Source: Spirochaetia bacterium
GTDB taxonomy: Bacteria; Spirochaetota; Spirochaetia; DSM-27196; PWMO01
DNA: 18,098 nucleotides
Assembly: GCA_041686235.1 (NCBI GenBank)
Contig: JAWLED010000059.1
Span: 1 to 18,098 of the forward strand
Direction of reading: 5' to 3'
Shown: piece by piece, positions 1,399-13,116 of the stretch
How the letters are laid out: the number at the start of each line of letters is the position of its first letter
Position numbering within the stretch: the first letter of the stretch is position 1
Position numbers and translations under genes: made by a program
Notes under the pieces: model-generated
Told to the model about the DNA's origin: nothing
What the model saw: only the letters and a program-made list of their open reading frames with translations
The model's database searches: none

Positions 1399-2424
1399 AT
1401 GAAGAAGGCACTAGTGCTCGTTCTTGCACTGATGCTCATCGCCGGAGCGGCGTTTGCTTCGGGCGAGGCCGAAGAGGAAGGGTACGAATGGCAACCTGAT
1501 CGGCCGATAAACCTGATCGTCCCGTGGGACGCGGGTGGCTCGACCGACCGTTCGGCACGGACGACCGCGGGAATCGTCGAAGAAGAGCTTGGCACGAGTA
1601 TTGTCATCGTCAACCAGGCCGGAGCCTCCGGCTCGGTCGGAACCCAAGAGGCCCTGAATGCCGAAAAAGACGGGCTGACCTGGACGGCCGGCGCGGTGAA
1701 AGACCTCGGGGTCTATAAGGTTCAGGGATTGCTGGACACGACCCTCGACGATTGGCATCTGTATCTCAACGTAGCAATGCCGAATGTGGTCTCGGTAAAC
1801 CCCGACACGCCGTACGAGGATTTCGGTGATCTCCTTGATGCGTTCGAGGAAAATCCCGGAGAGATCCCCGTTGCGACGGCCGGAGAAAACTCCGCGGGAC
1901 ACACCGCAATGGAGCTCATTAAGAGCTATACCGACATTGAATATCGTCATGTCACCTACGACGGCGGAAACCCCGCTGTTGTGGCGACGGTAGGCGGCGA
2001 GACCGATGTCGTGCCTCAACTGTCGGTTGAACAAGTGGATATGATTCGAAGCGGCGATCTTCGCCCGCTCGCAGTTCTTGCGGACAAGCCGCTCGAGATT
2101 TCCGGTTACGATGAGCCGATCCCGCCCATCACCGATTGGGTAGAGGATTTCCAGGCGGCACCGATCTATTTCGGCATTTTCGTGCCGAAGGGCGTACCTG
2201 ATGAGGTAGTTAACACGCTCGATCAGATCTGGGAAGATGTCGTTATGGATTCCGACGAGCTTCGCGAGTGGGCCGCCGAAAACGCGGTCGTCTTTGACCC
2301 GGTTTACGGCGAAGAGGCGTTCGAAAAATCCTTCCCGATGGTCCAAATCGATGCATGGCTCAAGTGGGACTCCGGCGATGCTGAGGTTGAACCGTCGGAA
2401 GTTGATATCCCGAGACCCGAATAA
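1399..2424 (+). CDS. tctC: Tripartite tricarboxylate transporter substrate-binding protein (TctC/Bug family), secreted
   Basis: GGGAGG lies 8 nt upstream of the ATG. The N-terminus is a signal peptide (MKKALVLVLALMLIAGAAFA). The PWDAGGSTD motif is characteristic of the TctC/Bug periplasmic binding fold; length is ~341 aa. Confidence 0.85.
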   Translation: MKKALVLVLALMLIAGAAFASGEAEEEGYEWQPDRPINLIVPWDAGGSTDRSARTTAGIVEEELGTSIVIVNQAGASGSVGTQEALNAEKDGLTWTAGAVKDLGVYKVQGLLDTTLDDWHLYLNVAMPNVVSVNPDTPYEDFGDLLDAFEENPGEIPVATAGENSAGHTAMELIKSYTDIEYRHVTYDGGNPAVVATVGGETDVVPQLSVEQVDMIRSGDLRPLAVLADKPLEISGYDEPIPPITDWVEDFQAAPIYFGIFVPKGVPDEVVNTLDQIWEDVVMDSDELREWAAENAVVFDPVYGEEAFEKSFPMVQIDAWLKWDSGDAEVEPSEVDIPRPE

Positions 2425-3041: not shown

Positions 3042-4604
3042 ATGTTGGAAGGCCTGGGATACTTTTTCGACGCGATAATAGAGTTTGCGACCCTAGGAAC
3101 CATATTCAATGTGCTGTGGGCGACCCAATTGGGAATCATCGTTGGGATGCTGCCCGGGCTCACCGCAACGATGGGCATTGCCCTCATGACCACGTTGACG
3201 TTCAAACTGCCCCCGAACGATGCCGTGCTTATCCTCGTGTGCATGTACATCGGGGCGATCTACGGAGGCGGGCGCAGCGCAATACTGCTGAACATACCCG
3301 GAACTCCGGCGAATGCAGCTACGGCGGTCGACGGCAACCCCCTCGCACGCCAGGGAAAGGCAGGGCAGGCAATCGGGATTGCCACCACCGGATCATTCAT
3401 CGGGTCGATCATCGGGATGCTTCTCTTGGCCACGATCACCCCGGCGCTCGGCAATTTTGCACTGCGTTTCCAATCGTTCGAGTTTTTCTGGCTTGCCGTA
3501 TTCGGCGTCGTCATCAGCGGAAACCTCACTGCCCCGAAAGACCCGCTCAAGGGGTGGATGGCCGGATTCCTCGGCTTGTTCGTTGCCATGATCGGCATGG
3601 AAAGCATACATGCGGTCGTGCGCTTCTCGTTTGGACAGGTTCAACTCTCCGGCGGGGTAAACCTGATTCCGGCGATGGTCGGAGCATTCGGCTTCTCGGA
3701 AGTCATCATGATGATGAAATACAAACGGGTAGACGTCATCCAAAGCGAGATAGCCAAGGTGCTTCCGAAACCAAGAGATGTGTATCGGCACTGGAAAACC
3801 ATATTTCGTTCCGGTGTAATCGGCACCTTTGTCGGTGCGGTACCCGGAGTGGGAGAGGATATCGGCGCGTGGGTCAGCTATGACTTCGCTCGTCGTGCAA
3901 GCAAGCATCCCGAAGAGTACGGACACGGTAGCTACGAGGGCATGATTTCGGCGGAAATAGGAAACAACGCGGCCGTCGCCGGCGCGATGATTCCCGTGTT
4001 ATCGCTTGCAATTCCCGGTTCTGCCCCGGCGGCGGTTCTACTGGCCGCCATGTTCATCCACGGTGTGAGACCGGGACCGATGATCATGACGGAAAACCCG
4101 AGTTTCGTATTCACCGTTGTTGCGATGGTGTTTTTGGCCACCTGCGCCATGTTTGTTCTGGGGCTCAGTATGGTCAAGGGGCTTGTAAAAGTCCTTCAGG
4201 TACCGAGAGACAAACTCATGCCCATTGTGTTTGTTCTGTGCGTAATCGGCTCGTTCGCGGTTCAGCAGCGTCTCTTCGACGTGTGGGTCATGGTAGCTTT
4301 CGGCGTCCTCGGATATCTCATGAAAGAAATGGACTACCCGGTTGCGCCGATGGTACTGGGCATCATTCTCGGAGACATTCTCGATCCGAATCTGCGCCGG
4401 TCGCTCGTTGTAACGGACGGCAACTTGCTTCCGTTCTTTACACGTCCGATTTCCGGAGTATTGGTGGCGCTGATTGTGTTCACTATGATAAGCAGATCGC
4501 ACTGGTTTATCGCGATAAGACGCAGTGCATTCGCCGGTGTCCGCTCAGTGTTTGTCCGATCACGGAGCGGTGATCGAGACGATGGTCCTGAAAATCGCAG
4601 CTAA
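3042..4604 (+). CDS. tctA: Tripartite tricarboxylate transporter large permease TctA
   Basis: 520-aa polytopic membrane protein. The start lies 14 nt after the tctB stop. The translation shows the TctA-family repeated-half architecture with Gly-rich helices. Confidence 0.85.
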   Translation: MLEGLGYFFDAIIEFATLGTIFNVLWATQLGIIVGMLPGLTATMGIALMTTLTFKLPPNDAVLILVCMYIGAIYGGGRSAILLNIPGTPANAATAVDGNPLARQGKAGQAIGIATTGSFIGSIIGMLLLATITPALGNFALRFQSFEFFWLAVFGVVISGNLTAPKDPLKGWMAGFLGLFVAMIGMESIHAVVRFSFGQVQLSGGVNLIPAMVGAFGFSEVIMMMKYKRVDVIQSEIAKVLPKPRDVYRHWKTIFRSGVIGTFVGAVPGVGEDIGAWVSYDFARRASKHPEEYGHGSYEGMISAEIGNNAAVAGAMIPVLSLAIPGSAPAAVLLAAMFIHGVRPGPMIMTENPSFVFTVVAMVFLATCAMFVLGLSMVKGLVKVLQVPRDKLMPIVFVLCVIGSFAVQQRLFDVWVMVAFGVLGYLMKEMDYPVAPMVLGIILGDILDPNLRRSLVVTDGNLLPFFTRPISGVLVALIVFTMISRSHWFIAIRRSAFAGVRSVFVRSRSGDRDDGPENRS

Positions 4605-4615
4605 GGAGCATGGAA

Positions 4616-5797
4616 ATGGCACAAAGGAAAATTCGTGCGGGTATCGTCGGATCGGGCTTCTCCGCCCGTTTTCACGTAGAAGCGCTCGAGCGCGTTTACA
4701 GTACCAACGTCGAGCTCGTAGGCGTATACTCTCCAACATCCGAACATAAGCAACAATTTGCCGACGCCCACGGCATAACCGCTTTCTCAACGCTCGAAGA
4801 GCTTGTCCAGGCGGTCAACGTGGTGCACGTGTGCACCCCTCCCGCGACCCATGAGCCGGTCGCGGTTGCCGCTCTCGAGGCCGGGCGATGCGTCATTATC
4901 GAAAAACCCTTTACCGGATACTTCGGCGACGGGAGCAAAGGTTTCTCCGGTGACACGTTTCCCCGCGAACACGGACTTTCCGGCGCACTTTCCTCAATCG
5001 AACGCCTGAGACAGGCAGAAGAGCGCTCAGACGGCATGATCTTGTATGCAGAAAACTGGGTCTATGCGCCGGCCGTACAGAAGGAACGGGAAATCATCGA
5101 AAAGACCGGCGCACAGCTGCTGTGGATGCACGGAGAGGAAGCCCATTCGGGCTCCCACTCGAAGTACTACGGCATTTGGGCCCACTCCGGTGGCGGGGCG
5201 ATCATGGGGAAGGGTGTGCATCCGCTCGGTGCGGCGCTCTATTTGAAGAAAGTGGAAGGACGGATGCGCGGAGGCGGTCCGATCCGGCCCAAGAGCGTCA
5301 GCGCCCATACGCACGCGGTCACGCGCGCGTCCAATTACGAGGATGCAGGATTTCTCCGCACCGGCTATACCGATATCGAGGATTTCGGCCACGTACATGT
5401 CGTCTTCGAGGACGGCACGTTTGCCGACATATTTGCCTCAGAGTTAGTACATGGGGGCGTGCACAATTGGATCGAGGTTAATGCCAACAATCATCGCACC
5501 ATCTGTAATATCAATCCCAATACCGCAATGCAGACCTATAACCCGAGCGAATCACAATTCGACGATATCTACGTAGTGGAGAAAACCGGCACAAAACAGG
5601 GGTGGGCGTTTACCTCGCCGGATGAGGACTGGTTTACCGGCTATCAGCATGAGATGGAGGCATTCTATCGCAATGTTGCAGAGGGCTCACAACCCGAGTC
5701 CGACGGGCGCCTTGCCGGAGACATTATCGCAGTGGTATATGCCGCCTACCTTTCTGCAGAGAAGCAAGGTCAAGCAGTAGACGTACCGCAGGTGTGA
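4616..5797 (+). CDS. Gfo/Idh/MocA family NAD(P)-dependent oxidoreductase
   Basis: The N-terminal Rossmann motif IRAGIVGSGFSARFH and the EKP motif (IIEKPF) are typical of Gfo/Idh/MocA. AAGGAG at 4603-4608 is 7 nt from the ATG at 4616; the ATG at 4610 is too close to the SD. Length is ~393 aa. Confidence 0.8.
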   Translation: MAQRKIRAGIVGSGFSARFHVEALERVYSTNVELVGVYSPTSEHKQQFADAHGITAFSTLEELVQAVNVVHVCTPPATHEPVAVAALEAGRCVIIEKPFTGYFGDGSKGFSGDTFPREHGLSGALSSIERLRQAEERSDGMILYAENWVYAPAVQKEREIIEKTGAQLLWMHGEEAHSGSHSKYYGIWAHSGGGAIMGKGVHPLGAALYLKKVEGRMRGGGPIRPKSVSAHTHAVTRASNYEDAGFLRTGYTDIEDFGHVHVVFEDGTFADIFASELVHGGVHNWIEVNANNHRTICNINPNTAMQTYNPSESQFDDIYVVEKTGTKQGWAFTSPDEDWFTGYQHEMEAFYRNVAEGSQPESDGRLAGDIIAVVYAAYLSAEKQGQAVDVPQV

Positions 5798-6702
5798 CAA
5801 GCTCGAATCTGTCTGCGCTGAAACGCTATTCAACCCCGGCCGTTGCGCCGGTGCTCTGGGGCGGCGCGCTCGTAGCCGGACGCGTCGTCTCAGCCGACCT
5901 TCCACCTATCACGATCACATGGGTACGGTTCGTGCTCGTGGGCCTACTCTTAGTACCAGTATTGTGGATACGCGAAGGACGGTTCCCGCGACCTCGGCGA
6001 ACGGATCTTGTGGCGCTCGTGCTTCTCAGCCTCACGGGCGTGGTCGTATTCAATCTGCTTTTGTTCTCTGGACTACAAACGGTAACTGCGGTGAGAAGTT
6101 CCGTTATCATTGCGCTCGGCCCGTCGGTCGTGGCGTTGTTATTGGTGGTGTTTTTTCACGAACGGGCGGAACGGAATACGGTTTTCGGCATTGCGGTGGC
6201 CTTTGCCGGAGCGGTGGTTACGATTACCAATGGCCGGCCGACTCACATATTGGCCGGTGGTATTTCGGTGGGAGATGCCTATCTCCTCGGGTGTGTGTTC
6301 TCATGGGCGATATACACGATCATCGCCCGCTACGCGATTCGCAACCTCTCATCTCTGTCGGTACTTACCTATTCCTCGATACTCGGTGCCGCAATGCTGA
6401 CTCCGGTTGCCGTGCGCGCTGATATCGCGGCGGAAGTTGCCGGGGCTACGCCACAGGCGTGGGTGGCGCTTGCGTATCTCGTGTTTGGAGCGGCAGGGTT
6501 TGCCTATCTCATGTATTATGAGGGTATCCGCCTGGTAGGCCCAAATCGGGCAGCAGTCTTCTTGAATTTAGAGCCGGTTTCTGCTATCTTTTTAGGCGTC
6601 GTGTTGCTGGGAGAGGCCCTGACGCCGCCGGTACTCATTGGTGCGGCATTGGTTATTTTGGGACTCTACCTGGTCAACCGACGGAAAGCGGCGAGTTCGT
6701 AA
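5794..6702 (+). CDS. EamA/DMT-superfamily permease (10-TM drug/metabolite transporter)
   Basis: A GTG start overlaps the oxidoreductase stop (GTGA, 4-nt overlap). The protein is 302 aa with two EamA-like 5-TM halves. The exact start is uncertain. Confidence 0.65.
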   Translation: MTSSNLSALKRYSTPAVAPVLWGGALVAGRVVSADLPPITITWVRFVLVGLLLVPVLWIREGRFPRPRRTDLVALVLLSLTGVVVFNLLLFSGLQTVTAVRSSVIIALGPSVVALLLVVFFHERAERNTVFGIAVAFAGAVVTITNGRPTHILAGGISVGDAYLLGCVFSWAIYTIIARYAIRNLSSLSVLTYSSILGAAMLTPVAVRADIAAEVAGATPQAWVALAYLVFGAAGFAYLMYYEGIRLVGPNRAAVFLNLEPVSAIFLGVVLLGEALTPPVLIGAALVILGLYLVNRRKAASS

Positions 6703-6734
6703 AGCAGCTGGACGACTGTCTATGTCCAGCTCTT

Positions 6735-6792
6735 AAAAAAGGGCGGGCGCGGCCCCACCGTAGCAGATAGAGCGGCGCGCCCGTCTCTCGTT
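6735..6792. terminator. Candidate bidirectional intrinsic terminator between the convergent EamA gene (+) and the sORF (-)
   Basis: An all-G/C 8-bp stem, cgggcgcg (6744-6751) with cgcgcccg (6776-6783). On the minus-strand RNA it is followed by ccc + UUUUUU (plus-strand A-run 6735-6740). On the plus strand it is followed by a U-rich tctctcgtt. The loop is long (24 nt), so confidence is modest. Confidence 0.35.
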
Positions 6793-6845
6793 ACCTGTTG
6801 GCGACCGTCACTCGAGGCGTGTTGAGCACGGTCACCGGCCCGCTG

Positions 6846-6974
6846 TTACATTTCCTGTTCTTGCTCGAGTTCCTGACCCTCTTCAGGGAGCTCACTCTCG
6901 TCGATGGGCTCACAACCCATAAGAGCAACACCAAACAACAGCGGAACAATAAGAAACAACGCTAGCTTTTTCAT
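6846..6974 (-). CDS. Unannotated small lipoprotein (42 aa): signal peptide + lipobox + 22-aa highly acidic mature peptide
   Basis: My reverse-complement translation gives MKKLALFLIVPLLFGVALMGCEPIDESELPEEGQELEQEQEM, ending at a TAA stop. A strong SD (GGGAGGAGG, plus 6981-6989) sits 6 nt before the ATG. The n-region (MKK), hydrophobic h-region and L-M-G-C lipobox fit PROSITE-type lipoprotein rules. It is below the 61-aa cutoff of the ORF track. Confidence 0.55.
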   Translation of the reverse strand: MKKLALFLIVPLLFGVALMGCEPIDESELPEEGQELEQEQEM

Positions 6975-7196
6975 AACGGTCCTCCTCCCGTTTAGTTGAT
7001 ATCTTTAATCTAACCGACGCGTGCAAAGGGCGTGTCCACGTATCATGAAGTGTTTGTGAAGCTCGCTGTGCTCGTGGACGACGGTTTCCGGCCCTCCCCA
7101 CACGCCCCGGGCCGGTGTCTCCCGGCGTGACGGCACCTTCTTTTAACAGCTCGTTGATATTGCTTAACGTTTCGCCGACAGAATCTTAACAATCCC

Positions 7197-7226
7197 TTGA
7201 CAAACCCGGTCTTGTGGCCTCATTTT
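7197..7226 (+). promoter_or_regulatory. Putative sigma70-type promoter for the aminopeptidase gene (perfect -35 TTGACA, weak -10 cATttT after 18 nt)
   Basis: TTGACA is at 7197-7202 and CATTTT at 7221-7226. The ATG at 7248 lies ~15-20 nt downstream of the predicted TSS. The TTG that the ORF track used as a start is this -35 box. Confidence 0.25.
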
Positions 7227-7247
7227 AGAAACCGGCAGGGTGTTGGA

Positions 7248-8333
7248 ATGAGACCCTATAGGTCGAGCGTTACAGTAATTCTCGCTGCATTGATCCTCGC
7301 GGGTGCGTTTTATGCACTCGACGGGGGGTATTTGGTTCGGCAAGGCATCGGCTACTTCCACACGGTCATACTTGCCCGCGACTTCGACACACTTCGTGCT
7401 CAAGAAGATCTTGATAAACCTACCGAGCACCTCTTAGAACGCGTTGAAGAAATCCGCAGGTTTGCGCACGAAGAGCTCGGACTGAGAAAAACCGAAAACT
7501 TCACACGATACAGCGAGGTTAATCGAGACTATTTGGTTACCGTGGTTTCGGTTGTGCGGGACGACCGAATGCAACGCGGGACGTGGAATTATCCCGTCGT
7601 TGGTGAGCTTTTCTATCGAGGTTACTACAATAGCTCTCAGGCACAGCGGGTAGCGGCGCGCCTCGAAGCACAGAATTACGACGTGCTCATCCGCGAGGTC
7701 GACGCCTTCAGCAGCCTCGGGTACTTCCCTGATCCGGTCTACAGTTTCATGTCCGACTATAGCGACTACCGTTTGGCAAACCTCATCATCCATGAGGAAA
7801 TGCACTCCACCCTCTGGCTCGAGGGGCAAAATGCGTTCAATGAAGAGATCGCGACGTTCGTCGGCGACGAGGGTGCTGCAGAGTTCGTACGGCAGAAGCA
7901 TGGGGTAGAATCTCCGGAGTATCAATCGATTGCCAAGGGGAGCGCGGATCGAAAAACATACCGGCGACTCATGACCGAGTTGCATGAGAAGTTATCCGCG
8001 GCCTACCAACGGCTCGAAACGCGAGCGGAGCGCCTCGAAGCCAAAGAACGAATCTTCGAAGAGTTCCAAGATAGGATCGCCGCCAATTACGACACCCTGT
8101 TTCGCACCGACCGCTATCGCGGTATCACCAACCTTCCGCCCGACAATGCCCGCGTAGACGCAAGCTATAAGTATGGCGGTGACCTCTCGTTGTACTACGA
8201 GCTCTATGAGGAAGTTGATCGCGACCTCAGTGAAGTCATCGATATGCTGCGTAACAGCGGAGCACGCCCCGACGCCCCGCGCGATGCCCTCAGATCGCTC
8301 CTCGAAGAGGATTCCTCGGTCGGCGACACGTAA
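7248..8333 (+). CDS. Putative zinc-dependent aminopeptidase (DUF2265/'predicted aminopeptidase'-like), N-terminal signal/anchor, HEXXH motif
   Basis: The internal ATG at 7248 begins MRPYRSSVTVILAALILAGAFYAL, a hydrophobic signal peptide or anchor. A HEXXH zinc motif, IIHEEMHSTLW, is present. The overall length is ~360 aa. The family assignment is from memory, not a search. Confidence 0.55.
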   Translation: MRPYRSSVTVILAALILAGAFYALDGGYLVRQGIGYFHTVILARDFDTLRAQEDLDKPTEHLLERVEEIRRFAHEELGLRKTENFTRYSEVNRDYLVTVVSVVRDDRMQRGTWNYPVVGELFYRGYYNSSQAQRVAARLEAQNYDVLIREVDAFSSLGYFPDPVYSFMSDYSDYRLANLIIHEEMHSTLWLEGQNAFNEEIATFVGDEGAAEFVRQKHGVESPEYQSIAKGSADRKTYRRLMTELHEKLSAAYQRLETRAERLEAKERIFEEFQDRIAANYDTLFRTDRYRGITNLPPDNARVDASYKYGGDLSLYYELYEEVDRDLSEVIDMLRNSGARPDAPRDALRSLLEEDSSVGDT

Positions 8334-8377
8334 CACTCGCTGCGATACGCGACGTCACTATCCGAGCAGCTACCGTC

Positions 8378-10246
8378 TTACGCGAGCGATTCGAGCTCTT
8401 CCCACCACTGGTAGGCGTCGGAAATCTCGCGCTCGAGCTCGTCAAGCCGCTCGGTAAGCTCCCGCACCGTCGAGCCGTCGGCCTCCGTGTCGCGGTAGAG
8501 GGCAGGGTCGGAGAGTTTGCGATGAATCTGCTCCTGTTCGGCCTCCAACTCTGCGATTCGGTCCGGCAGTAGCTCGAGCTCGCGACGCTCTTTGAATCCG
8601 AGTTTGCGCGGTTGCTCGGCGCGTCGCTGTCGGTTTGTTTTGCCGCTTGTTTTGCTGCCGGCCTTCTCGCTCGTGGACTCTCGGCGGCCGGCGTGCTGTC
8701 GGCGCTCACGCTCACGTTCGCGCCAATCGGTGTATCCGCCGGAGTATTCGACGACCTGAGCATCTCCGCTCAGTACGAGGCACTCCGTAACCACGTTATC
8801 GAGAAACTCACGGTCGTGGCTCACGAGAATGATCGTCCCATCGTAGTCGATCAGAAGCTGCTCGAGCAGCTCGAGTGTTTCGGTGTCGAGGTCGTTGGTC
8901 GGCTCATCGAGGACCAAAACGTTCGACGGGCGCGCAAAGAGCTTTGCCAGCAGTAACCGGTTGGTCTCTCCGCCGGAAATGCCCTTCGCAGGCTTTTTCA
9001 TATCTTCTTCACTGAAGAGAAACTCTTTGAGATATCCGGCAAGATGACGCTCGCGGCCGGCGTAGCGTACCCGATCGTAGCCGCCGCCGACGTTCTCGTA
9101 GATCGATGCCTCGGGATCGATACGTGCCCGCATTTGGTCGAAGTAGACGACCTCGAGCCCGGTGCCGTGCCGGACCGTCCCTGCATCCGGCGACAATTCT
9201 TTGAGCAGTAGGCGAACGAGGGTGGTCTTGCCGCTGCCGTTTGGGCCCACGATACCCACGCGGTCGCCGCGCTCGATCATGGTCGAAAGCCCCGATATGA
9301 TCGACGTTTCCCCGTAGCCGAAGCTGAGCTCTTCGGTCTCGATCACCATATCACCCGAGCGCTCTGCGTTCTCGATCGACATCCGTGCGGTTTCCGGACG
9401 CTCCCGCCGCTGTCGATGCTCCTCGCGCATCTGCTCTAAGCGCCGCACGCGGCCCTCATTGCGGGTCTGACGGGCCTTTATGCCTTTGCGAATCCAGGCT
9501 TCCTCTGCGGCAAGTTTCTCATCGAATTTGCGTCGCTCCTCCTCTTCCTGTTCGAGTTGCTGTTGGCGCCGGCGGACGAACTCGTCGTAGCCGGCATCAA
9601 AACTGTAGAGCTTACCGCGGTCGAGCTCGGCGACTCGAGTGGTTAGCCGTCGTGCCAGGGCGCGGTCGTGGGTAACCAACAACAAGGCGCGCTTCTCGAC
9701 GTTCGACAATCGGAGGAGATAGTCTTCGAGCCATAGGACGGTGTCGATGTCGAGGTGGTTCGTCGGCTCGTCGAGAAGGACCGCATCCGCTCCGGCGGCA
9801 AGGGTGCGGGCGAGCAGTACCCGACGCAGCACTCCGCCGGATGCCGTTGAGAGCTCCGTGTCCGCCCCGACCCCGAGGCGGGTGAGAAACTGCTCGGCTT
9901 CGAGACGTCTGTGAGCGAGCGTCTCGTGGTCTTCGTCCGGACCGGCGTCGAGCGCGGCGTCGATCGCCGATCCGCTCCATCCGTGGGGAATCTGCTGATC
10001 GAGGTACGCAAGCCGTGCCCCCGCCTGAACGCTCACCCGGCCCTCGTCGGGAGTCAGTTTCCCGGCCGCAATTCGCAGGAGGGTGGATTTGCCCGCGCCG
10101 TTTCTGCCCACCAGACTGATCCGCTCACCAGGCTGCACGTGCAGCGAGACGTGGTCGAGAACAGGGTCCCCGCCGAAGTTGTAGTACACATCGTGAAAGC
10201 CAAGAAGCGCCACGGCCGCACGGTAGCACAACCGGCGCCGCCGCAT
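8378..10246 (-). CDS. uup: ABC-F family twin-ATPase (Uup-like) with C-terminal basic/coiled-coil domain
   Basis: There are two complete ABC cassettes (Walker A GRNGAGKST and GPNGSGKTT; signature LSGG-like motifs; Walker B LLDEPTNHLD and LVLDEPTNDLD). A charged inter-domain linker is rich in E/R/K. The C-terminal Arg/Lys-rich segment plus coiled coil is typical of Uup. There are no TM segments. The exact start is uncertain (ATG 10246 or GTG 10213). Confidence 0.85.
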   Translation of the reverse strand: MRRRRLCYRAAVALLGFHDVYYNFGGDPVLDHVSLHVQPGERISLVGRNGAGKSTLLRIAAGKLTPDEGRVSVQAGARLAYLDQQIPHGWSGSAIDAALDAGPDEDHETLAHRRLEAEQFLTRLGVGADTELSTASGGVLRRVLLARTLAAGADAVLLDEPTNHLDIDTVLWLEDYLLRLSNVEKRALLLVTHDRALARRLTTRVAELDRGKLYSFDAGYDEFVRRRQQQLEQEEEERRKFDEKLAAEEAWIRKGIKARQTRNEGRVRRLEQMREEHRQRRERPETARMSIENAERSGDMVIETEELSFGYGETSIISGLSTMIERGDRVGIVGPNGSGKTTLVRLLLKELSPDAGTVRHGTGLEVVYFDQMRARIDPEASIYENVGGGYDRVRYAGRERHLAGYLKEFLFSEEDMKKPAKGISGGETNRLLLAKLFARPSNVLVLDEPTNDLDTETLELLEQLLIDYDGTIILVSHDREFLDNVVTECLVLSGDAQVVEYSGGYTDWRERERERRQHAGRRESTSEKAGSKTSGKTNRQRRAEQPRKLGFKERRELELLPDRIAELEAEQEQIHRKLSDPALYRDTEADGSTVRELTERLDELEREISDAYQWWEELESLA

Positions 10247-10285
10247 CTACGCACCATCGTATACGCACCGCCATTAATATGCCTC

Positions 10286-10313
10286 GTGACGAGATCCGGC
10301 AGAGTACGGTATA
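10286..10313 (+). promoter_or_regulatory. Putative promoter for the small OMP gene: -35 GTGACG, 16-nt spacer, perfect -10 TATAAT (10308-10313)
   Basis: The TATAAT hexamer lies 37 nt upstream of the ATG at 10350. The alternative ATG at 10314 sits inside this element and is therefore unlikely to be the start. Confidence 0.35.
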
Positions 10314-10349
10314 ATGTGTAGAGACGACACGGAGGCGTTACGGAGCCTA

Positions 10350-11072
10350 ATGAAGCTCACAAAGATATCAATAATCGCCCCGGTTCTCGGGGTTTTTCTT
10401 CTGCTCTCGGCTGTCCAGACACCGGCACAGACCTCGTACGTCGGGGTCAAAGGCGGGATTTTCGCCGGCTTCTACGGAGGCGAGGACTGGAAAGATACGA
10501 TTTCCGAGATCGACGGCCAAACCGGTGTTAGTGCCGAGAACGCCTTTAGAGCGGGGTTTGCACTGTCAGGCCTCGTGGAAATCGGGGTGAGCCGTACGTT
10601 CTCGATCCAACCGGAAATCGGATACGCGCGGCGAAGCGGCGGAGTGGTGACGGAAGAAGACGACAGCGACAATGAGCAGCAAAGCCTCTTCATGTACGAT
10701 CTCATTGAGATTCCCCTATTCTTGAAACCCCACGGGAGAATAGGAGATCACCTGACTCTCTACGGTTTGTTAGGTCCTAGGGTGAGTTTTCTTTTTGGGG
10801 ACGTGACCGCCAGAGGTAGGGAAGAAACCGACAACGACACGACGACCACGACTTCTGAAAGAACACCGGATAATACGGTCTTATTTGGTGGCTCCGTGGG
10901 CGCGGGGCTCGCCGGCGATGTCAACGGCGCGCGCATTCTGTTCGAAGCGCTATACTCACGGCACTTCAACTCCGCTTTTGAAGAAGTGGACCTCTTAGGT
11001 CAAAACGAGACAACGAAACGACCGATCCTCAACAGCATCGGCCTGTGGCTCGGAGTAGACTTCCCCATCTAG
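10350..11072 (+). CDS. Small outer-membrane beta-barrel protein (OmpA-N/OmpW-like 8-strand barrel family), secreted
   Basis: The signal peptide is MKLTKISIIAPVLGVFLLLSAVQTPAQT. Alternating hydrophobic/aromatic beta-strand patterns are present (YVGVKGG, FALSGLVEIGV, FSIQPEIGYA, LFGGSVGAGLA, ILFEALYSR), with a low-complexity D/T-rich surface loop. GGAGG/ACGGAG boxes lie upstream. Confidence 0.6.
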   Translation: MKLTKISIIAPVLGVFLLLSAVQTPAQTSYVGVKGGIFAGFYGGEDWKDTISEIDGQTGVSAENAFRAGFALSGLVEIGVSRTFSIQPEIGYARRSGGVVTEEDDSDNEQQSLFMYDLIEIPLFLKPHGRIGDHLTLYGLLGPRVSFLFGDVTARGREETDNDTTTTTSERTPDNTVLFGGSVGAGLAGDVNGARILFEALYSRHFNSAFEEVDLLGQNETTKRPILNSIGLWLGVDFPI

Positions 11073-12256
11073 AACGAGTAGGTAAATCCGGTGCTCAGCG
11101 TGGCCGCTCCCGAGCGCTCCCACGCGAAAACGTTCGTGTTGTCTCCGCTCTGCACGCCGGCAAACGCCACCAATTCAAATCCGCCGAATACATTCCAACT
11201 CACCCCGGTGCTCATGTAAGCCGAGAGATCGATCGGTGACACAATCGAGCGCAGCACAACGGATACCGTACGCCCGGGGCTCAGAACGAGCTCCGGGTAT
11301 AGGGTGAGCCCGTACTCGCCCTGGGGGTCATTCTTGTCCTCCCACGCGCCCCCCGGGCGGATGAGCGCCTCGAGTCGAGCGTCGAGGTCTACCTCGCGGC
11401 CGAGAGTGAAGCGGTTGTAGGCTCCGAGGCTGAAGGTCGCTCGTTCGTCCACCGCATCTCCGTCGGCATCGCCCCCGATATCGCCGTCTATCGAGAGCCG
11501 CCCCGCGCCGTAGACGTCCACGCCTATGAGCCCGACGACGGTGAGGACCGTTTCGTGGCGCCCGCTTGTGCCGTCATACAGGTAGGCCGGCTCGAGCGTG
11601 AAATTCCCGAGCTCGAAGCTCAGACGCCCACCCGCTCGGCTACTGCTGAGCTCAGAGGGCTCATCCCCGGAGCCGGTCGACGGGCTTCCCTCGGTCGGGA
11701 GGTCGGGGAGGATAATGGGCTCGAAGTATGAGAACGAGCCGAGCGGAACATACACCGCGCTCAACCACGTGGTTTCATTACGCAGGTCGTCCGATATCTC
11801 GAAAAAGTCGGCCGCGCCGGTTCCGTCCGCGCCAAAAATGACGTCGGCGGCGTTGAACAGACGCCCCATACCCCACGAAACGCGGTCGCGCCCGGAGGTC
11901 ACACGCACCGTGTAGTCCTCGGTCAGCGGAAACCGGAAGCGTATAGAGGCACGGGGGACGGTTACCGTGGCCGCTTGCTCGGTATCCCCGGTGTTCGAGC
12001 CGGTGGTCTCGCCAAGAACGGCATCGAGTGTGAGGCGAGCCTGAACGTTGCGGTCACGCTCGGAGCGGAGGTCGAGTTCCCCGCGGCCATAGCCGAGCAA
12101 TCCGAGCTCGTCCTTGGCGCCGTTCCATGCGAGGGTGTTTAGCGTCTCGATTTCCCCGTCGATCCGCGCCTGGGCGGCAAGCGGGAGCGGGGCGATGGTA
12201 CACAAAACCGCCACTATCGCGCACCACAGAGCCGGTCCGCCGCGTGCGCCTACCAT
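11069..12256 (-). CDS. Outer-membrane beta-barrel protein (395 aa), last gene of the minus-strand operon
   Basis: GGAGG is 7 nt before the ATG. The signal peptide ends at AAQA. The sequence is dominated by alternating hydrophobic strands with G/D-rich turns and ends with the OMP C-terminal signature ...STGFTYSF (terminal Phe). The start overlaps the upstream LolA_like gene by 7 nt. Confidence 0.6.
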   Translation of the reverse strand: MVGARGGPALWCAIVAVLCTIAPLPLAAQARIDGEIETLNTLAWNGAKDELGLLGYGRGELDLRSERDRNVQARLTLDAVLGETTGSNTGDTEQAATVTVPRASIRFRFPLTEDYTVRVTSGRDRVSWGMGRLFNAADVIFGADGTGAADFFEISDDLRNETTWLSAVYVPLGSFSYFEPIILPDLPTEGSPSTGSGDEPSELSSSRAGGRLSFELGNFTLEPAYLYDGTSGRHETVLTVVGLIGVDVYGAGRLSIDGDIGGDADGDAVDERATFSLGAYNRFTLGREVDLDARLEALIRPGGAWEDKNDPQGEYGLTLYPELVLSPGRTVSVVLRSIVSPIDLSAYMSTGVSWNVFGGFELVAFAGVQSGDNTNVFAWERSGAATLSTGFTYSF

Positions 12257-13116
12257 GAGAGCTCCTCCAGCGAAAAAATATTCGAGGGAAGATCAACCCC
12301 GATTTCCACACTTTCGAGGATCATGTCCGTGCTGCTCGACCTGCGGGTCGTGTCGTCGATGCGCAGGTGTATCGGGAAGTGGTAGCCGTTCCGACGTGTG
12401 GTCTCGAGGACGCTGATCTCTTTCAACTGCCGTCCGCTGCGCGCGTACTGCTCGCTTTTGAGGAGCACGAAGTCCTCGGCATCGACATAATAGACTTGCC
12501 GTGGATACGCTACATTGGTGCCGCGCGCCTCGAGCTCGATCTTATACGCGTTGCGCCCCTGGATTTGTTCTTCACCTTGGAGATTCACCCGATAATCATC
12601 GAGTAGCCCCCGCCCCCCGGTCATATCTTCGTAGGAGAGATCCGATCCCAGAAGCGAGTCACGCAACGCCGAGCCCTGCAACCGGATTACTTCCCGCGCA
12701 TCGGGGTAATAGAGATACAGATTATCGTCGCGGCGAAGGATCCGCTGGCCGTCTTCGTCGCGCGAGGTAAACTCTACGAGAAATCGATCTTCGCCTTCGC
12801 TGTGCATGATAAACGTGCTTGTGCGCTCACCGAAGCGGTCGTTTATCACCATGCGCCCCTCGACAATGCTCGTGGGGTGTGTTTGGTTCTCCTCCATCCG
12901 CTCGATAATATCTTCGCCCGTCATCTCCTCGGCGGGCAGACTGAGCGGTGCGAGGAGCACGAAAGCGGCAAGGGCGGGGAGGGCGGCCACCATTCGCCGC
13001 CGAGTGCCGGCCGTGCGGCGGGCGGCTCGGCGCTCGCCGGCACGGTGGTCGCCCGTGCGGCGGGCGGCGGCCCGCATTACGCAGATTCGTGTTCTCATAC
13101 GTGAAACTTTTCTCAT
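12250..13116 (-). CDS. LolA_like 'outer-membrane lipoprotein-sorting protein' family protein (distant LolA/LppX fold), exported
   Basis: AAGGAG is 7 nt before the ATG at 13116, immediately after the permease stop. The hydrophobic export segment is MVAALPALAAFVLLAPLSLPA. The mature part carries the SDLSYEDM motif (GSDF/LSYEDM is the family hallmark) and the typical ~230-aa core. It starts with an unusual Arg-rich 41-aa N-terminal extension, so the alternative start is M42 at 12993. Confidence 0.6.
   Translation of the reverse strand: MRKVSRMRTRICVMRAAARRTGDHRAGERRAARRTAGTRRRMVAALPALAAFVLLAPLSLPAEEMTGEDIIERMEENQTHPTSIVEGRMVINDRFGERTSTFIMHSEGEDRFLVEFTSRDEDGQRILRRDDNLYLYYPDAREVIRLQGSALRDSLLGSDLSYEDMTGGRGLLDDYRVNLQGEEQIQGRNAYKIELEARGTNVAYPRQVYYVDAEDFVLLKSEQYARSGRQLKEISVLETTRRNGYHFPIHLRIDDTTRRSSSTDMILESVEIGVDLPSNIFSLEELSW

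Follow-up and report, generated by a model that had tools for sequence, protein, structure and literature searches.

Does the 42-codon reading frame lying alone in an intergenic gap of an uncultured spirochaete represent a true gene, and what might its product do at the cell envelope? No part of bacterial proteomes is charted as poorly as the small proteins, and those small lipoproteins that have been characterised (Lpp, entericidins, LptM) proved to differ from one another in their envelope role. The sORF considered here, found in a stretch of 18,098 nt from a Spirochaetia bacterium (contig JAWLED010000059.1; hereafter the window), appears to follow a different design, namely a polyanionic, proline-rich thread of 15-33 residues attached to a lipid anchor, which would be encoded in several self-contained, co-regulated cassettes and has an evolutionary tie to PF10023, a zinc peptidase family widespread in bacteria. 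An earlier note, made from the letters alone, had proposed an unannotated lipoprotein gene with a poly-acidic mature part; below we follow this proposal from the reading frame and its relatives to the signals around it and to the roles that may be assigned to the peptide.

The reading frame and its homologues

The minus strand at 6846-6974 encodes MKKLALFLIVPLLFGVALMGC followed by EPIDESELPEEGQELEQEQEM, and both the 42-codon frame running from ATG to TAA and the near-ideal Shine-Dalgarno sequence with a 6-nt spacer, as supposed in the earlier note, were borne out (Table 1). The GGAGG core of this sequence is kept at equal distance from the ATG in every homologue. The non-coding stretch around the frame, previously estimated at ~540 nt, extends over 545 nt from the stop of the EamA gene (6702) to the start of the PF10023 gene (7248). 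Chance is no explanation for the sORF, since frames combining an ATG start, a length of 25-80 aa, the lipoprotein rule and the Shine-Dalgarno core appeared in just 3% of 200 shuffled windows. The word "unannotated" had to be withdrawn, as the identical protein is present in GenBank under MGM0674288.1 ([quoted passage not shown]).

Table 1. Positions of the sORF, its signals and the divergent peptidase gene in the window
Feature	Position	Strand	Details
Operator-like array, four direct repeats in exact 11-nt register	7017..7060	-	Conservation among paralogues, PWM
-10-like hexamer TAGATT	7007..7012	-	Conservation; ~32 nt upstream of ATG; candidate promoter element
Shine-Dalgarno GGGAGGAGG	6981..6989	-	6-nt spacer ACCGTT (6980..6975) to ATG
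42-aa prolipoprotein CDS	6846..6974	-	ATG 6974..6972, Cys21 codon 6914..6912, TAA 6848..6846
Signal peptide, codons 1-20	6974..6915	-	
Mature 22-mer CEPIDESELPEEGQELEQEQEM, codons 21-42	6914..6849	-	
3' UTR hairpin 1, 13+ bp stem	6800..6836	-	Folds; starts 12 nt past stop, after conserved CAGCGG
3' UTR hairpin 2, intrinsic-terminator-like	6735..6782	-	GGGCGCG...CGCGCCC stem 6782..6745, T6 6740..6735
PF10023 "putative aminopeptidase", 361 aa	7248..8333	+	Divergent neighbour of sORF

Searches covering 1.84 billion cluster representatives and a 5.8-billion-cluster set revealed 38 distinct homologues of 35-54 aa, all of them in uncultured halophilic Spirochaetales and in both cluster sets never embedded in a larger protein. 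Conservation in relatives, on which the proposal of a gene depended, is thereby confirmed together with strong purifying selection: dN/dS ranges from 0.02 to 0.3 across pairs (pS 0.4-0.9 versus pN 0-0.3, with synonymous sites near-saturated), comparison of the window with L020 over 30 codons gives 12 synonymous and 0 non-synonymous differences, and every length difference among homologues is in frame. Since the protein is conserved while synonymous sites approach saturation, selection acts on the peptide. Judged from these comparisons, the sORF is a genuine conserved protein-coding gene and a stand-alone transcription unit, and we consider it highly probable that the gene is real and its product a lipoprotein.

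Five diverse members compared with Pfam and NCBIfam at E up to 10 gave no match above threshold, and the sub-threshold matches aligned to the signal peptide alone. The distinction from the entericidin, Lpp and LptM families therefore stands, as none of their HMMs was matched. The closest approach to a described acidic lipoprotein was that of one member to B. subtilis LytA (NF058647), aligned weakly over the signal peptide; with 12.9 bits against a cut-off of 110 and ~40 aa against 107 aa it is not a member of that family. By the same homology evidence the sORF is the founding member of a small-lipoprotein family not described before, all of whose members come from halophilic Spirochaetales. 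JGI metagenomes scanned with a peptide pattern gave zero matches, and the literature on small acidic spirochaete lipoproteins, Alkalispirochaeta and alkaliphile surface polyanions yielded nothing specific.

Lipoprotein signal and acidic tail

In the window protein MKK forms the n-region, the hydrophobic core spans 15 residues and the lipobox reads L-M-G-C, with Cys21 at its end. The protein passes both PROSITE PS51257, a rule asking for a positive charge among the first 7 residues and a lipobox Cys between positions 15 and 35, and the G+LPP pattern, in agreement with the lipoprotein signal peptide read earlier from the letters; all calls of this kind rest here on these two regular-expression rules. 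The PS51257 expression is passed by 38 of 38 members, with Cys at 21 or 22 and Gly/Ala at -1; the lipobox Cys is invariant (38/38), and positions 2-3 carry K or R in the whole set (38/38). Within the first 19 members, G+LPP accepts the window protein and the others with L(M/I/V/F)GC and fails those having F or S at -3. Both lgt and lspA are encoded by spirochaetes in general.

The family layout comprises the n-region, a core containing PLLFG, the lipobox, EP(I/V)(D/E) directly after Cys and a Glu/Pro/Gln tail of 10-25 residues, the short post-Cys motif being conserved in 33 of 38 members. Pro11 is invariant (38/38), and L12, L13, F14 and G15 are each kept in 17 of 18 aligned members. Mean pairwise identity reaches 65% over the signal peptide versus 53% and 24% over the mature part, the last value being that of the tail. 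Conservation of the signal peptide above the mature part is left unexplained by a model taking the tail alone as the product. In AF2 models residues 3-19 form a helix (pLDDT 81-84), and the tail is a low-confidence coil (pLDDT 57-63).

The 22-residue mature part of the window protein holds 10 acidic and 0 basic residues, exactly the poly-acidic peptide that had been described. Across homologues, mature parts of 15-33 aa consist of E (32%), P (18%), Q (13%) and D (5%), have a net charge from -4 to -12, contain one basic residue in 754 and lack Lys altogether. This composition clearly points to selection on the tail at the level of composition, as a polyanion. The earlier note also contrasted the charge character of the peptide with that of entericidin- and Lpp-class lipoproteins; the polyanionic mature part is there, but its exceptionality weakens among the proteins of the host. 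Exported and soluble proteins of the same organism are generally acidic, and the neighbouring periplasmic binding protein has a pI of 4.05 with 19% D+E and 5% K+R. Since exported proteins of the host are generally very acidic, the tail charge is less exceptional in this context than against E. coli; an acidic exported peptide is less surprising in a halophile than elsewhere, and part of the acidity may be ordinary halophile adaptation.

Acidic residues clustered straight after the +1 Cys recall the lipoprotein export signal (LES) of Bacteroidota, where an acidic cluster in this place sends lipoproteins to the cell surface and into vesicles (PMC5080379, PMC6222051, PMC10319031). The LES is defined as C-X-K-(D/E)2-X, or Q-A-(D/E)2, at +2 to +6 with Lys or Gln before the acidic pair (PMC5080379), whereas the present family, belonging to another phylum, has C-E-P-(I/V)-(D/E), where neither +2 nor +3 is K or Q, and its acidic stretch makes up the whole mature protein instead of being a tag on a folded domain.

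Cassette architecture and the phased repeat array

Each copy of the sORF is a self-contained cassette composed of 11-bp-phased repeats, a TAnnnT box, a strong Shine-Dalgarno sequence, the ORF and two 3' hairpins, with ~95 nt upstream and ~110 nt downstream conserved among copies in unrelated neighbourhoods. Several cassette copies occur per genome, and one MAG has two on different contigs; no further copies were found within the window, nor was a second small lipobox ORF near the sORF, which is single at each locus. Thus the statement that the gene "sits alone" holds for a stand-alone transcription unit and overlooked both the paralogous cassettes of each genome and the recurrent PF10023 neighbour. 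As a scan of IMG/VR gave no relative, the dispersed copies are not evidently phage-borne.

Upstream conservation among paralogues starts exactly at the array and is absent further upstream. The array units in the window are ttcacaaacac, ttcatgatacg, tggacacgccc and tttgcacgcgt, and four units in exact 11-nt register precede every homologue, the repeat motif being present once per locus and always before the sORF. In 103 kb, phased arrays of at least three repeats were observed 9 times versus 0.08 expected by shuffling, and all nine lie upstream of genes: seven sORFs, a PF10023 peptidase (L026) and a secreted 126-aa protein with 31% D+E (L009). Scanning of JGI metagenomes with a 28-nt operator pattern gave zero matches.

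The invariant TAnnnT lies 8-9 nt past the end of the fourth unit; its assignment as -10 is made by conservation only: T1, A2 and T6 of the hexamer are invariant across sub-type A, and sub-type B has the forms TAGGTT, TATGTT and TAAGTT. The promoter was inferred from conservation because a sigma-70 consensus scan of 6500-7400 found none, and no -35 element lies at 16-18 nt from TAGATT. A sigma-54 reading of GTGGAC-N-TTTGCA was rejected, as GG and GC are spaced by 11 instead of 10, and L009 and L016 lack the GC; sigma-28 and ECF readings, judged by eye, fitted poorly.

Tandem direct repeats with an 11-nt period, which would lie in the -35 region if the putative -10 element is correct, resemble PHO boxes and other sites of the OmpR/PhoB family, where two or more such units overlap or take the place of the -35 some 10 bp before the -10. 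The geometry fits the 11-nt unit definition of PHO boxes, and the core TTCAC is similar to S. coelicolor GTTCACC (PMC4415409); such geometry is not PHO-specific, being used by other OmpR-family regulators. Since four 11-bp-phased repeats seem to occupy the position expected for -35, transcription is probably OmpR/PhoB-family-dependent, and control of the sORF by a response regulator is, on the pattern of these repeats, moderately probable. Phosphate limitation is the leading candidate for the inducing signal on circumstantial grounds: one PF10023 peptidase (L027) adjoins HisKA, an OmpR-type response regulator and PhoU, that of L026 adjoins GDPD and a phosphoesterase, and the habitat is poor in phosphorus. 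With the phased array as a concrete motif, a two-component regulon of uncultured halophilic spirochaetes could be delimited.

At the 3' end, the hairpin with T6 that the earlier note offered as a terminator after the TAA is present, although it is the second of two and a longer one precedes it. The stem sequence of this second hairpin is conserved among sub-type A paralogues. A long hairpin occupies the place of hairpin 1 in homologues with completely different sequence; assessed by per-sequence folds, as the stems are unalignable in sequence, it has a z-score of -2.3 in the window and of -3.9 to -5.3 in six homologues. A scan of the whole window against Rfam matched no family, hence no known riboswitch, leader or sRNA is recognised.

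The peptidase neighbour and candidate roles

The divergent neighbour in the window matches PF10023 above the gathering score and is confidently modelled as a gluzincin-fold zinc metallopeptidase, with HExxH and a downstream Glu (H182-E183-x-x-H186...E199), a zincin fold, an N-terminal signal anchor without lipobox Cys and a pI of 4.95. PF10023 is the only neighbour recurring beside the sORF in distant lineages: it adjoins the sORF in the window type (divergent), in L029 (intact), L022, L024 and L025, and the L009 neighbourhood is that of L029 with the peptidase reduced to a remnant. The sORF-adjacent peptidases are just 34-52% identical, and other neighbours are not shared. Adjacency is absent from four peptidase contexts (L026, L027, L028 and L030) and from at least three sORF contexts (L001, L005 and L021). 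In sub-type B the two genes share a strand and the sORF comes immediately before the peptidase; a terminator and a separate peptidase promoter lie between the two. The L026 peptidase is preceded by the same phased repeat array as the sORFs. A functional tie of the sORF to the peptidase may be proposed tentatively. Two simple forms of it were rejected: a leader peptide for the peptidase is contradicted by the intervening terminator and promoter and by the divergent orientation in the window, and the idea that the small lipoprotein makes up for a lost lipid anchor of the peptidase is contradicted by L025, whose peptidase keeps its lipobox with the sORF still present.

From the established Sec, Lgt and LspA route of lipoprotein biogenesis, the precursor would be exported via Sec, diacylglycerylated at Cys21 and then relieved of its 20-residue signal peptide. 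The product would be a lipid-anchored 22-mer with a net charge of about -10, without fixed structure or similar to polyproline, that reaches a few nanometres into the periplasm from a membrane face. Expression would not be constitutive but would respond, via an OmpR/PhoB-family regulator, to a signal from the envelope or from nutrient supply. The small stand-alone gene, very strong translation signals and stable-looking mRNA 3' end are shared with Lpp (PF04728), by analogy with which the product is a candidate for very high abundance; unlike Lpp, the family matches no such HMM, has no heptad coiled coil (the tail being modelled as coil) and no C-terminal Lys for peptidoglycan attachment.

The role that we consider most likely, albeit with low confidence, is that of a bulk, phosphorus-free, membrane-tethered polyanion raising the negative surface charge and deployed together with the PF10023 zinc peptidase, its ancestral neighbour. 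Cations or protons would be held at the membrane in hypersaline, pH-fluctuating and phosphorus-poor mats. The habitats include Lake Solenoe, with 122 g/L salt and pH 8.46 (PMC7807203), and the Archaean Domes mats of Cuatro Cienegas, where salt ranges from 5.3% to saturation, pH from 5 to 9.8 and C:N:P is 122:42:1 (PMC11169877). Cation binding and envelope spacing, guessed earlier, are compatible with the present evidence, which supplies a regulatory and genomic context in addition. If the bulk-polyanion or phosphorus-sparing reading were true, it would represent a new tuning of surface charge by a gene product and not by lipid or polysaccharide. Taken as a whole, the picture of a regulated, probably abundant, periplasmic membrane-tethered polyanionic lipopeptide functionally tied to the peptidase appears to us an evenly balanced proposition.

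A wider form of the polyanion reading, quite unlikely in our estimate, places the multi-copy sORF cassettes in one response-regulator regulon, plausibly of Pho type, with the PF10023 peptidase and one or more secreted poly-acidic proteins, serving a phosphorus-free membrane coat. The diacylglyceryl-Cys anchor with a Glu/Pro/Gln peptide as head group would then act as an anionic "lipid" that replaces or supplements the charge of anionic phospholipids and holds cations or protons when phosphorus is scarce, i.e., as a ribosomally made functional counterpart of the teichoic-to-teichuronic acid or phospholipid-to-sulfolipid switch. As to the bulk-charge role itself, the conserved EP(I/V)(D/E) and the recurrent peptidase neighbour better fit a specific partner.

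Such a partnership is the core of the strongest alternative, in which the lipopeptide binds the PF10023 peptidase specifically, as a membrane adaptor, a trans-acting inhibitor or pro-peptide, or a substrate whose tail is trimmed or released, with EP(I/V)(D/E)xxE(L/M)P as the recognition element. A model is provided by LptM (YifL; PF13627 LPAM_2), which has a short post-Cys motif and a variable disordered tail and is accessory to a larger envelope protein. The present family likewise has a conserved motif directly after Cys and then a variable tail, but it does not match the LptM HMM (E up to 10), its motif is EP(I/V)(D/E), it belongs to another phylum, and the putative partner is a zinc peptidase instead of the LPS translocon. 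Adjacency kept in five lineages while other neighbours change and orientation flips, the remnant in L009, suggesting that the sORF-peptidase pair was duplicated together, the repeat array shared by the L026 peptidase, the 33/38 conservation of the motif beside the lipid anchor and the confident gluzincin model all speak for a ligand. Against it, a peptidase is missing from the surroundings of several paralogous copies per genome, peptidases 55-67% identical to that of the window have no adjacent sORF, the two genes are separate transcription units, each with its own signals (the terminator and the promoter of the peptidase lying between them), and an N-acylated peptide is not attackable by an aminopeptidase. 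Since the peptidase is itself acidic, simple electrostatic binding is also improbable. We regard the ligand as unlikely, though well ahead of the alternatives below; if true, it would give the first functional handle on PF10023.

Leaving the tail as a disposable carrier, one may suppose that the cell makes use of the cleaved signal peptide, or of a fragment of it, as a hydrophobic signal released by a site-2 protease. Enterococcal sex-pheromone precursors, processed by Eep and exported by PptAB, provide the precedent of pheromones made from lipoprotein signal peptides and show a similarly unusual constraint on the signal peptide (PMC4173765), but they are full-size lipoproteins of monoderm Firmicutes, and in a spirochaete a hydrophobic octapeptide must cross the outer membrane. 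The excess of signal-peptide identity over both parts of the mature peptide agrees with this supposition, as do invariant Pro11 and conserved L12-G15, which are not required by Sec, Lgt or Lsp. The tail, however, is clearly selected for composition, with 1 basic residue in 754, the motif behind the Cys is conserved, and processing or export genes were not seen nearby. The tight constraint may also come simply from post-translational targeting, if translation of so short a protein ends before it can leave the ribosome. A signal-peptide product is thus very unlikely.

An uncleaved, non-lipidated single-pass miniprotein (N-in, C-out) with an acidic periplasmic tail, comparable to small membrane proteins modulating transporters or kinases, appears highly improbable: MKK and helix 3-19 could also form a signal anchor, and a conserved hydrophobic segment is typical of transmembrane miniproteins with in-membrane partners, but Cys, Gly/Ala at -1, a hydrophobic residue at -3 (S in some members) and a fixed distance from the N-terminus are kept in 38 of 38, and such a lipobox is the signature of processing by Lgt and LspA, unneeded for a transmembrane anchor.

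Entericidins are amphipathic helical peptides encoded in a toxin/antidote tandem. A membrane-damaging small lipoprotein similar to them or to type I toxins is disfavoured as extremely improbable: EcnA/EcnB (PF08085) share with the sORF the size class (prolipoprotein of ~40-48 aa, mature part of ~20-27 residues), the lipobox, the stand-alone regulated gene and probable two-component control, but PF08085 is unmatched by the five diverse members even at E up to 10, there is no tandem toxin/antidote pair, partner ORF or antisense gene, the copies being dispersed single genes, the tail is polyanionic, Pro-rich and predicted disordered, not amphipathic, and a strong unobstructed Shine-Dalgarno sequence with several copies per genome is the opposite of toxin gene design. 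The probability is just as slight that the ORF is incidental to a functional RNA, either a leader or uORF for the downstream peptidase or an sRNA with a structured 3' end; the collinear sub-type B arrangement and two strong 3' UTR hairpins, the first keeping structure and not sequence, would suit it, but they are outweighed by the lack of an Rfam match, the terminator of the sORF and separate promoter of the peptidase, the divergent orientation in the window, the paralogues without peptidase and a protein conserved while its synonymous sites are near saturation.

The small lipoprotein gene and its family

The small open reading frame (sORF) is flanked by a convergent EamA transporter gene (ending at 6702) and a divergent gene for a peptidase of the PF10023 "putative aminopeptidase" family (starting at 7248), which leave a gap of 545 nt; its features are collected in the table. 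The earlier note had described a Shine-Dalgarno sequence at a six-nucleotide spacer, a lipoprotein signal peptide with L-M-G-C lipobox and a mature 22-mer with about 10 acidic and no basic residues, and each of these was found in place: the lipobox Cys is residue 21, the peptide passes both PROSITE PS51257 and the stricter G+LPP pattern, and exactly 10 acidic and 0 basic residues are counted in the predicted mature part. A Shine-Dalgarno-preceded lipobox ORF of 25-80 aa turns up in only 3% of shuffled windows. The description "unannotated" has to be withdrawn, since an identical protein is deposited in GenBank (MGM0674288.1, [quoted passage not shown]). No Rfam families were found in the window.

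Features of the sORF and its surroundings in the window
Feature	Position	Strand	Remarks
sORF	6846-6974	-	42 codons, ATG to TAA; product MKKLALFLIVPLLFGVALMGCEPIDESELPEEGQELEQEQEM
Shine-Dalgarno GGGAGGAGG	6989..6981	-	six bases (ACCGTT) ahead of ATG
Hexamer TAGATT	7012..7007	-	T1, A2 and T6 invariant; 8-9 nt past repeats, ~32 nt before ATG
Four 11-nt direct repeats	7060..7017	-	ttcacaaacac / ttcatgatacg / tggacacgccc / tttgcacgcgt
3′ hairpin 1	6836..6800	-	folding
3′ hairpin 2, GC-rich	6782..6745	-	GGGCGCG...CGCGCCC; consensus scan and folding
T-run T6	6740..6735	-	after hairpin 2
PF10023 "putative aminopeptidase" gene	7248-8333	+	divergent from sORF; E 2.6e-73

A word-indexed search over 5.8 billion clusters returned six relatives, 38-40 aa long; a HMMER profile run exhaustively on 1.84 billion representatives gave nine clusters, all of 38-43 aa, and a broader profile extended the clusters up to 37. 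Together with copies taken from genome loci (loci bear L numbers), these clusters make up 38 distinct sequences of 35-54 aa, in no case located inside a larger protein. Conservation of the reading frame, which the earlier note had proposed to check, is borne out by these homologues, whose length differences are in frame without exception. In the DNA, synonymous positions approach saturation (pS 0.4-0.9) against low pN of 0-0.3; over the first 30 codons 12 synonymous and 0 non-synonymous substitutions separate the window from locus L020, and dN/dS is 0.02-0.3 wherever dS is estimable. Hence it is the peptide, and not an RNA, that is under selection, and the sORF is a real, selected, protein-coding gene. 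The original observation is real and somewhat richer than was seen at first.

The lipoprotein rule is passed by 38/38 members; their Cys is residue 21 or 22 and is preceded by Gly or Ala. In the family alignment (A4) Pro11 is invariant in all 38, and L12-L13-F14-G15 is nearly so (each residue in 17/18 aligned members). Directly after Cys, EP(I/V)(D/E) stands in 33 of the 38, usually followed by xxE(L/M/F)P and then by a variable tail. Mature parts of 15-33 aa consist of Glu (32%), Pro (18%), Gln (13%), Gly (7%) and Asp (5%), with a basic residue at 1 of 754 positions and net charge from -4 to -12. Two sub-types are distinguished, the window-like "...VALMGC...(Q/E)EM" (A) and "...AFFIGC...EEPAxP" (B). 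AlphaFold2 places a helix at residues 3-19 (pLDDT 81-84), followed by a mature part drawn as coil with low confidence (57-63). Five diverse members were compared with Pfam and NCBIfam, and none matched a model even at E = 10, the few sub-threshold matches covering the signal peptide only.

Named members are all "hypothetical protein" entries from MAGs, with none from cultured strains, labelled Spirochaetota, Spirochaetia, Spirochaetaceae, Alkalispirochaetaceae, Sediminispirochaetaceae or Spirochaeta sp. One member, P0015, comes from a MAG labelled Bacteroidota, all others belonging to Spirochaetota; this label is probably a binning error, horizontal transfer being the alternative. Traceable source samples are hypersaline, including Lake Solenoe near Novosibirsk (122 g/L salt, pH 8.46; PMC7807203) and, at Cuatro Cienegas, the mats called "Archaean Domes" (salt from 5.3% up to saturation, pH 5-9.8, C:N:P 122:42:1; PMC11169877). 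Soluble and exported proteins encoded in the window are acidic too, as exemplified by the periplasmic binding protein of a TctABC-type transporter at 1399-2424 (+), with pI 4.05, 19% D+E and 5% K+R. Exported proteins of this organism appear strongly acid-shifted and halophile-like, and this general acidity makes the charge of the sORF tail less exceptional.

Genomic surroundings and the 3′ end

Homologues are spread over six or more unrelated neighbourhoods: the window arrangement with PF10023 on one side and EamA on the other (L010-L018, L020), a place behind ABC permeases (L001-L004), between an auxin-efflux-type carrier on one side and DUF4956/VTC/CotH genes on the other (L005-L008, L023), and others (L009, L021). 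Two copies lie on different contigs of one MAG (L021, L023), and the same samples contain both window-type and ABC-type copies. Despite the differing surroundings, flanks are conserved over ~95 nt upstream and ~110 nt downstream and end abruptly beyond.

The hairpin with T6 offered by the earlier note as a terminator is present in the consensus scan, and by folding it is the second of two. Directly after the stop codon a conserved CAGCGG is followed by the long first hairpin (together 6800-6845 (-) in the window; same position in L001, L005, L009, L016, L020 and L021), whose stem is kept and whose sequence is wholly different between copies; the GGGCGCG...CGCGCCC hairpin and its T-run come next. 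Shuffle z-scores for the 3′ fold range from -3.9 to -5.3 in six homologues and stand at -2.3 in the window; in sub-type B copies, too, one or two hairpins and a T-run close the unit. The transcript would be short (roughly 270 nt), stable and terminated efficiently, and its variable first hairpin may either stabilise the mRNA or be a palindrome that evolves fast. On the EamA side, hairpin AGCTGGAC...GTCCAGCT (6706-6733) directly follows the EamA stop, with the two sORF hairpins beyond it, so three stand back to back within 6706-6836 between the convergent genes; the A6/T6 run at 6735-6740 between the two sides could serve termination both ways.

As revealed by tblastn of window proteins against all loci, the sub-type B sORF of L022, L024 and L025 (Alkalispirochaeta) is followed at once, on the same strand, by a PF10023 homologue with an identity of only 33-35%, and no other window neighbour is shared. 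The order in L029 is sORF, PF10023 (52% identical), an acetyltransferase-like gene and an epimerase; L009 has the same two latter genes, and between them and its sORF only a 58-aa peptidase remnant (1659-1832 (+), 52% identical to residues 218-275 of the window peptidase), which in view of the intact L029 gene represents a decayed copy. This comparison suggests an ancestral pair whose two genes were duplicated as a unit. Not every peptidase has such a partner: within 3 kb of those in L026, L027, L028 (55-67% identical) and L030 (Treponema primitia), no small acidic lipobox ORF was found. The L024 sORF and peptidase have a terminator and a TTGACG-17-TAGACT promoter between them and are therefore separate transcription units. 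In L025, two TAGACACACCC copies ~37 nt apart with a partial ACACACCC between them (~4211-4260 (+)) sit between the sORF terminator and the peptidase start.

According to the PF10023 alignment (A6), most of the distant homologues, including Treponema and Breznakiella, possess a lipobox (...(F/L)SGC|Y), and Cys is lost from it in the halophilic clade including the window (...DGG|Y; 7248-7335 (+)), so that the peptidases there are no longer lipoproteins and have become signal-anchored or secreted. This loss shows no correlation with an adjacent sORF.

Phased repeats and putative regulation

No sigma-70 consensus promoter was detected for the sORF; a sigma-54 reading was rejected, its spacing being wrong and the GC dinucleotide lost in two copies. 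Upstream of every copy, four consecutive direct repeats stand in 11-nt register, reading ttgac / tggac / tggac in sub-type B. A strict scan of 103.5 kb (window plus 14 loci) for at least three half-sites T[TG][ACG]A[CT] at exact 11-nt steps returned 9 arrays against 0.08 expected from shuffles. Seven of these are sORF promoters; one directly precedes the PF10023 gene of L026 (2911-2948 (+)), a locus without adjacent sORF, and one in L009 (1054-1080 (-)) precedes a divergent gene whose secreted product, 126 aa long, contains 31% Asp+Glu and 1% Lys+Arg. The shared phased array may point to a small regulon made up of the PF10023 peptidase and exported acidic proteins. Upstream of the window peptidase (7140-7215 (+)), looser TTAACA / TTGATA / TTAACG / TTAACA / TTGACA units at 10-11-nt steps were noticed by eye and are not flagged by the strict scan.

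PHO boxes, as OmpR/PhoB-family sites in general, are defined by tandem 11-nt direct-repeat units, with the core CTGTCAT in E. coli and GTTCACC in Streptomyces coelicolor (PMC4415409), the latter sharing TTCAC with the sORF repeats. From this common geometry we infer that an OmpR/PhoB-family response regulator probably activates the sORF. As the signal, phosphate limitation is the first candidate, on circumstantial grounds only, because the L027 peptidase adjoins a histidine kinase, an OmpR-type regulator and PhoU (4122-7092), a GDPD/phosphoesterase gene (GDPD plus Exo_endo_phos) directly precedes the L026 peptidase (1126-2904), and one habitat is phosphorus-poor. Phosphate-flavoured neighbours (DUF4956, VTC, CotH) also occur downstream of the L005 copy (6333-11505).

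Possible role of the product

Expressed in dependence on a response regulator, as its promoter would imply, the precursor would follow the standard Sec/Lgt/LspA pathway, being exported, lipidated at Cys21 and freed of its 20-residue signal peptide to leave in the periplasm a 22-mer with a lipid anchor and a charge of about -10, either disordered or polyproline-like. Our tentative preference, held at clearly less than even chances, is that it acts in bulk as a phosphorus-free polyanion tethered to the membrane, where it would make the surface charge more negative and hold cations or protons, co-deployed with the PF10023 peptidase and other secreted acidic proteins. This is favoured because the composition of the tail is kept and its sequence is not, basic residues are excluded, amplified gene copies carry the same promoter, and the operator is common to another poly-acidic secreted protein. 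The conserved post-Cys motif and the adjacency of the two genes speak for the main rival, a specific adaptor, inhibitor or substrate of the PF10023 peptidase, which we consider rather unlikely; the two readings are mutually compatible.

Identity within the family amounts to 65% in the signal peptide (codons 1-20; 6915-6974 (-)) versus 53% and 24% in the mature part, and the constancy of Pro11 and L12-L13-F14-G15 exceeds the needs of export and lipidation. This higher conservation would fit a signal-peptide fragment as the actual product, as in enterococcal pheromones (PMC4173765), a reading of low probability; the constraint may equally stem from special targeting of a protein that is too short to be exported co-translationally. 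Specific observations speak against each of these further readings: a toxin, an uncleaved membrane miniprotein, a leader peptide and a function of the RNA alone.

The likeness in size to entericidins and Lpp pointed out in the earlier note holds, extends to biogenesis and to LptM, and stops short of membership: no HMM match was obtained for any of them, the family lacks the toxin and antidote pair of entericidins and the coiled coil and C-terminal Lys of Lpp, and its post-Cys motif differs from that of LptM. The Bacteroidota lipoprotein export signal, also acidic after Cys, requires Lys or Gln (PMC5080379), which is missing here, and belongs to another phylum. The family is best described as a new, previously undescribed one within small bacterial lipoproteins, unusual in its design of a lipid anchor and a short E/P/Q polyanion. 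About 5 kb from the sORF, the product of 12250-13116 (-) matches PF17131 (TP_0789-like, with LolA-like lipoprotein-sorting fold) and weakly MucB_RseB, and its gene adjoins that of a beta-barrel outer-membrane protein (10314-11072).
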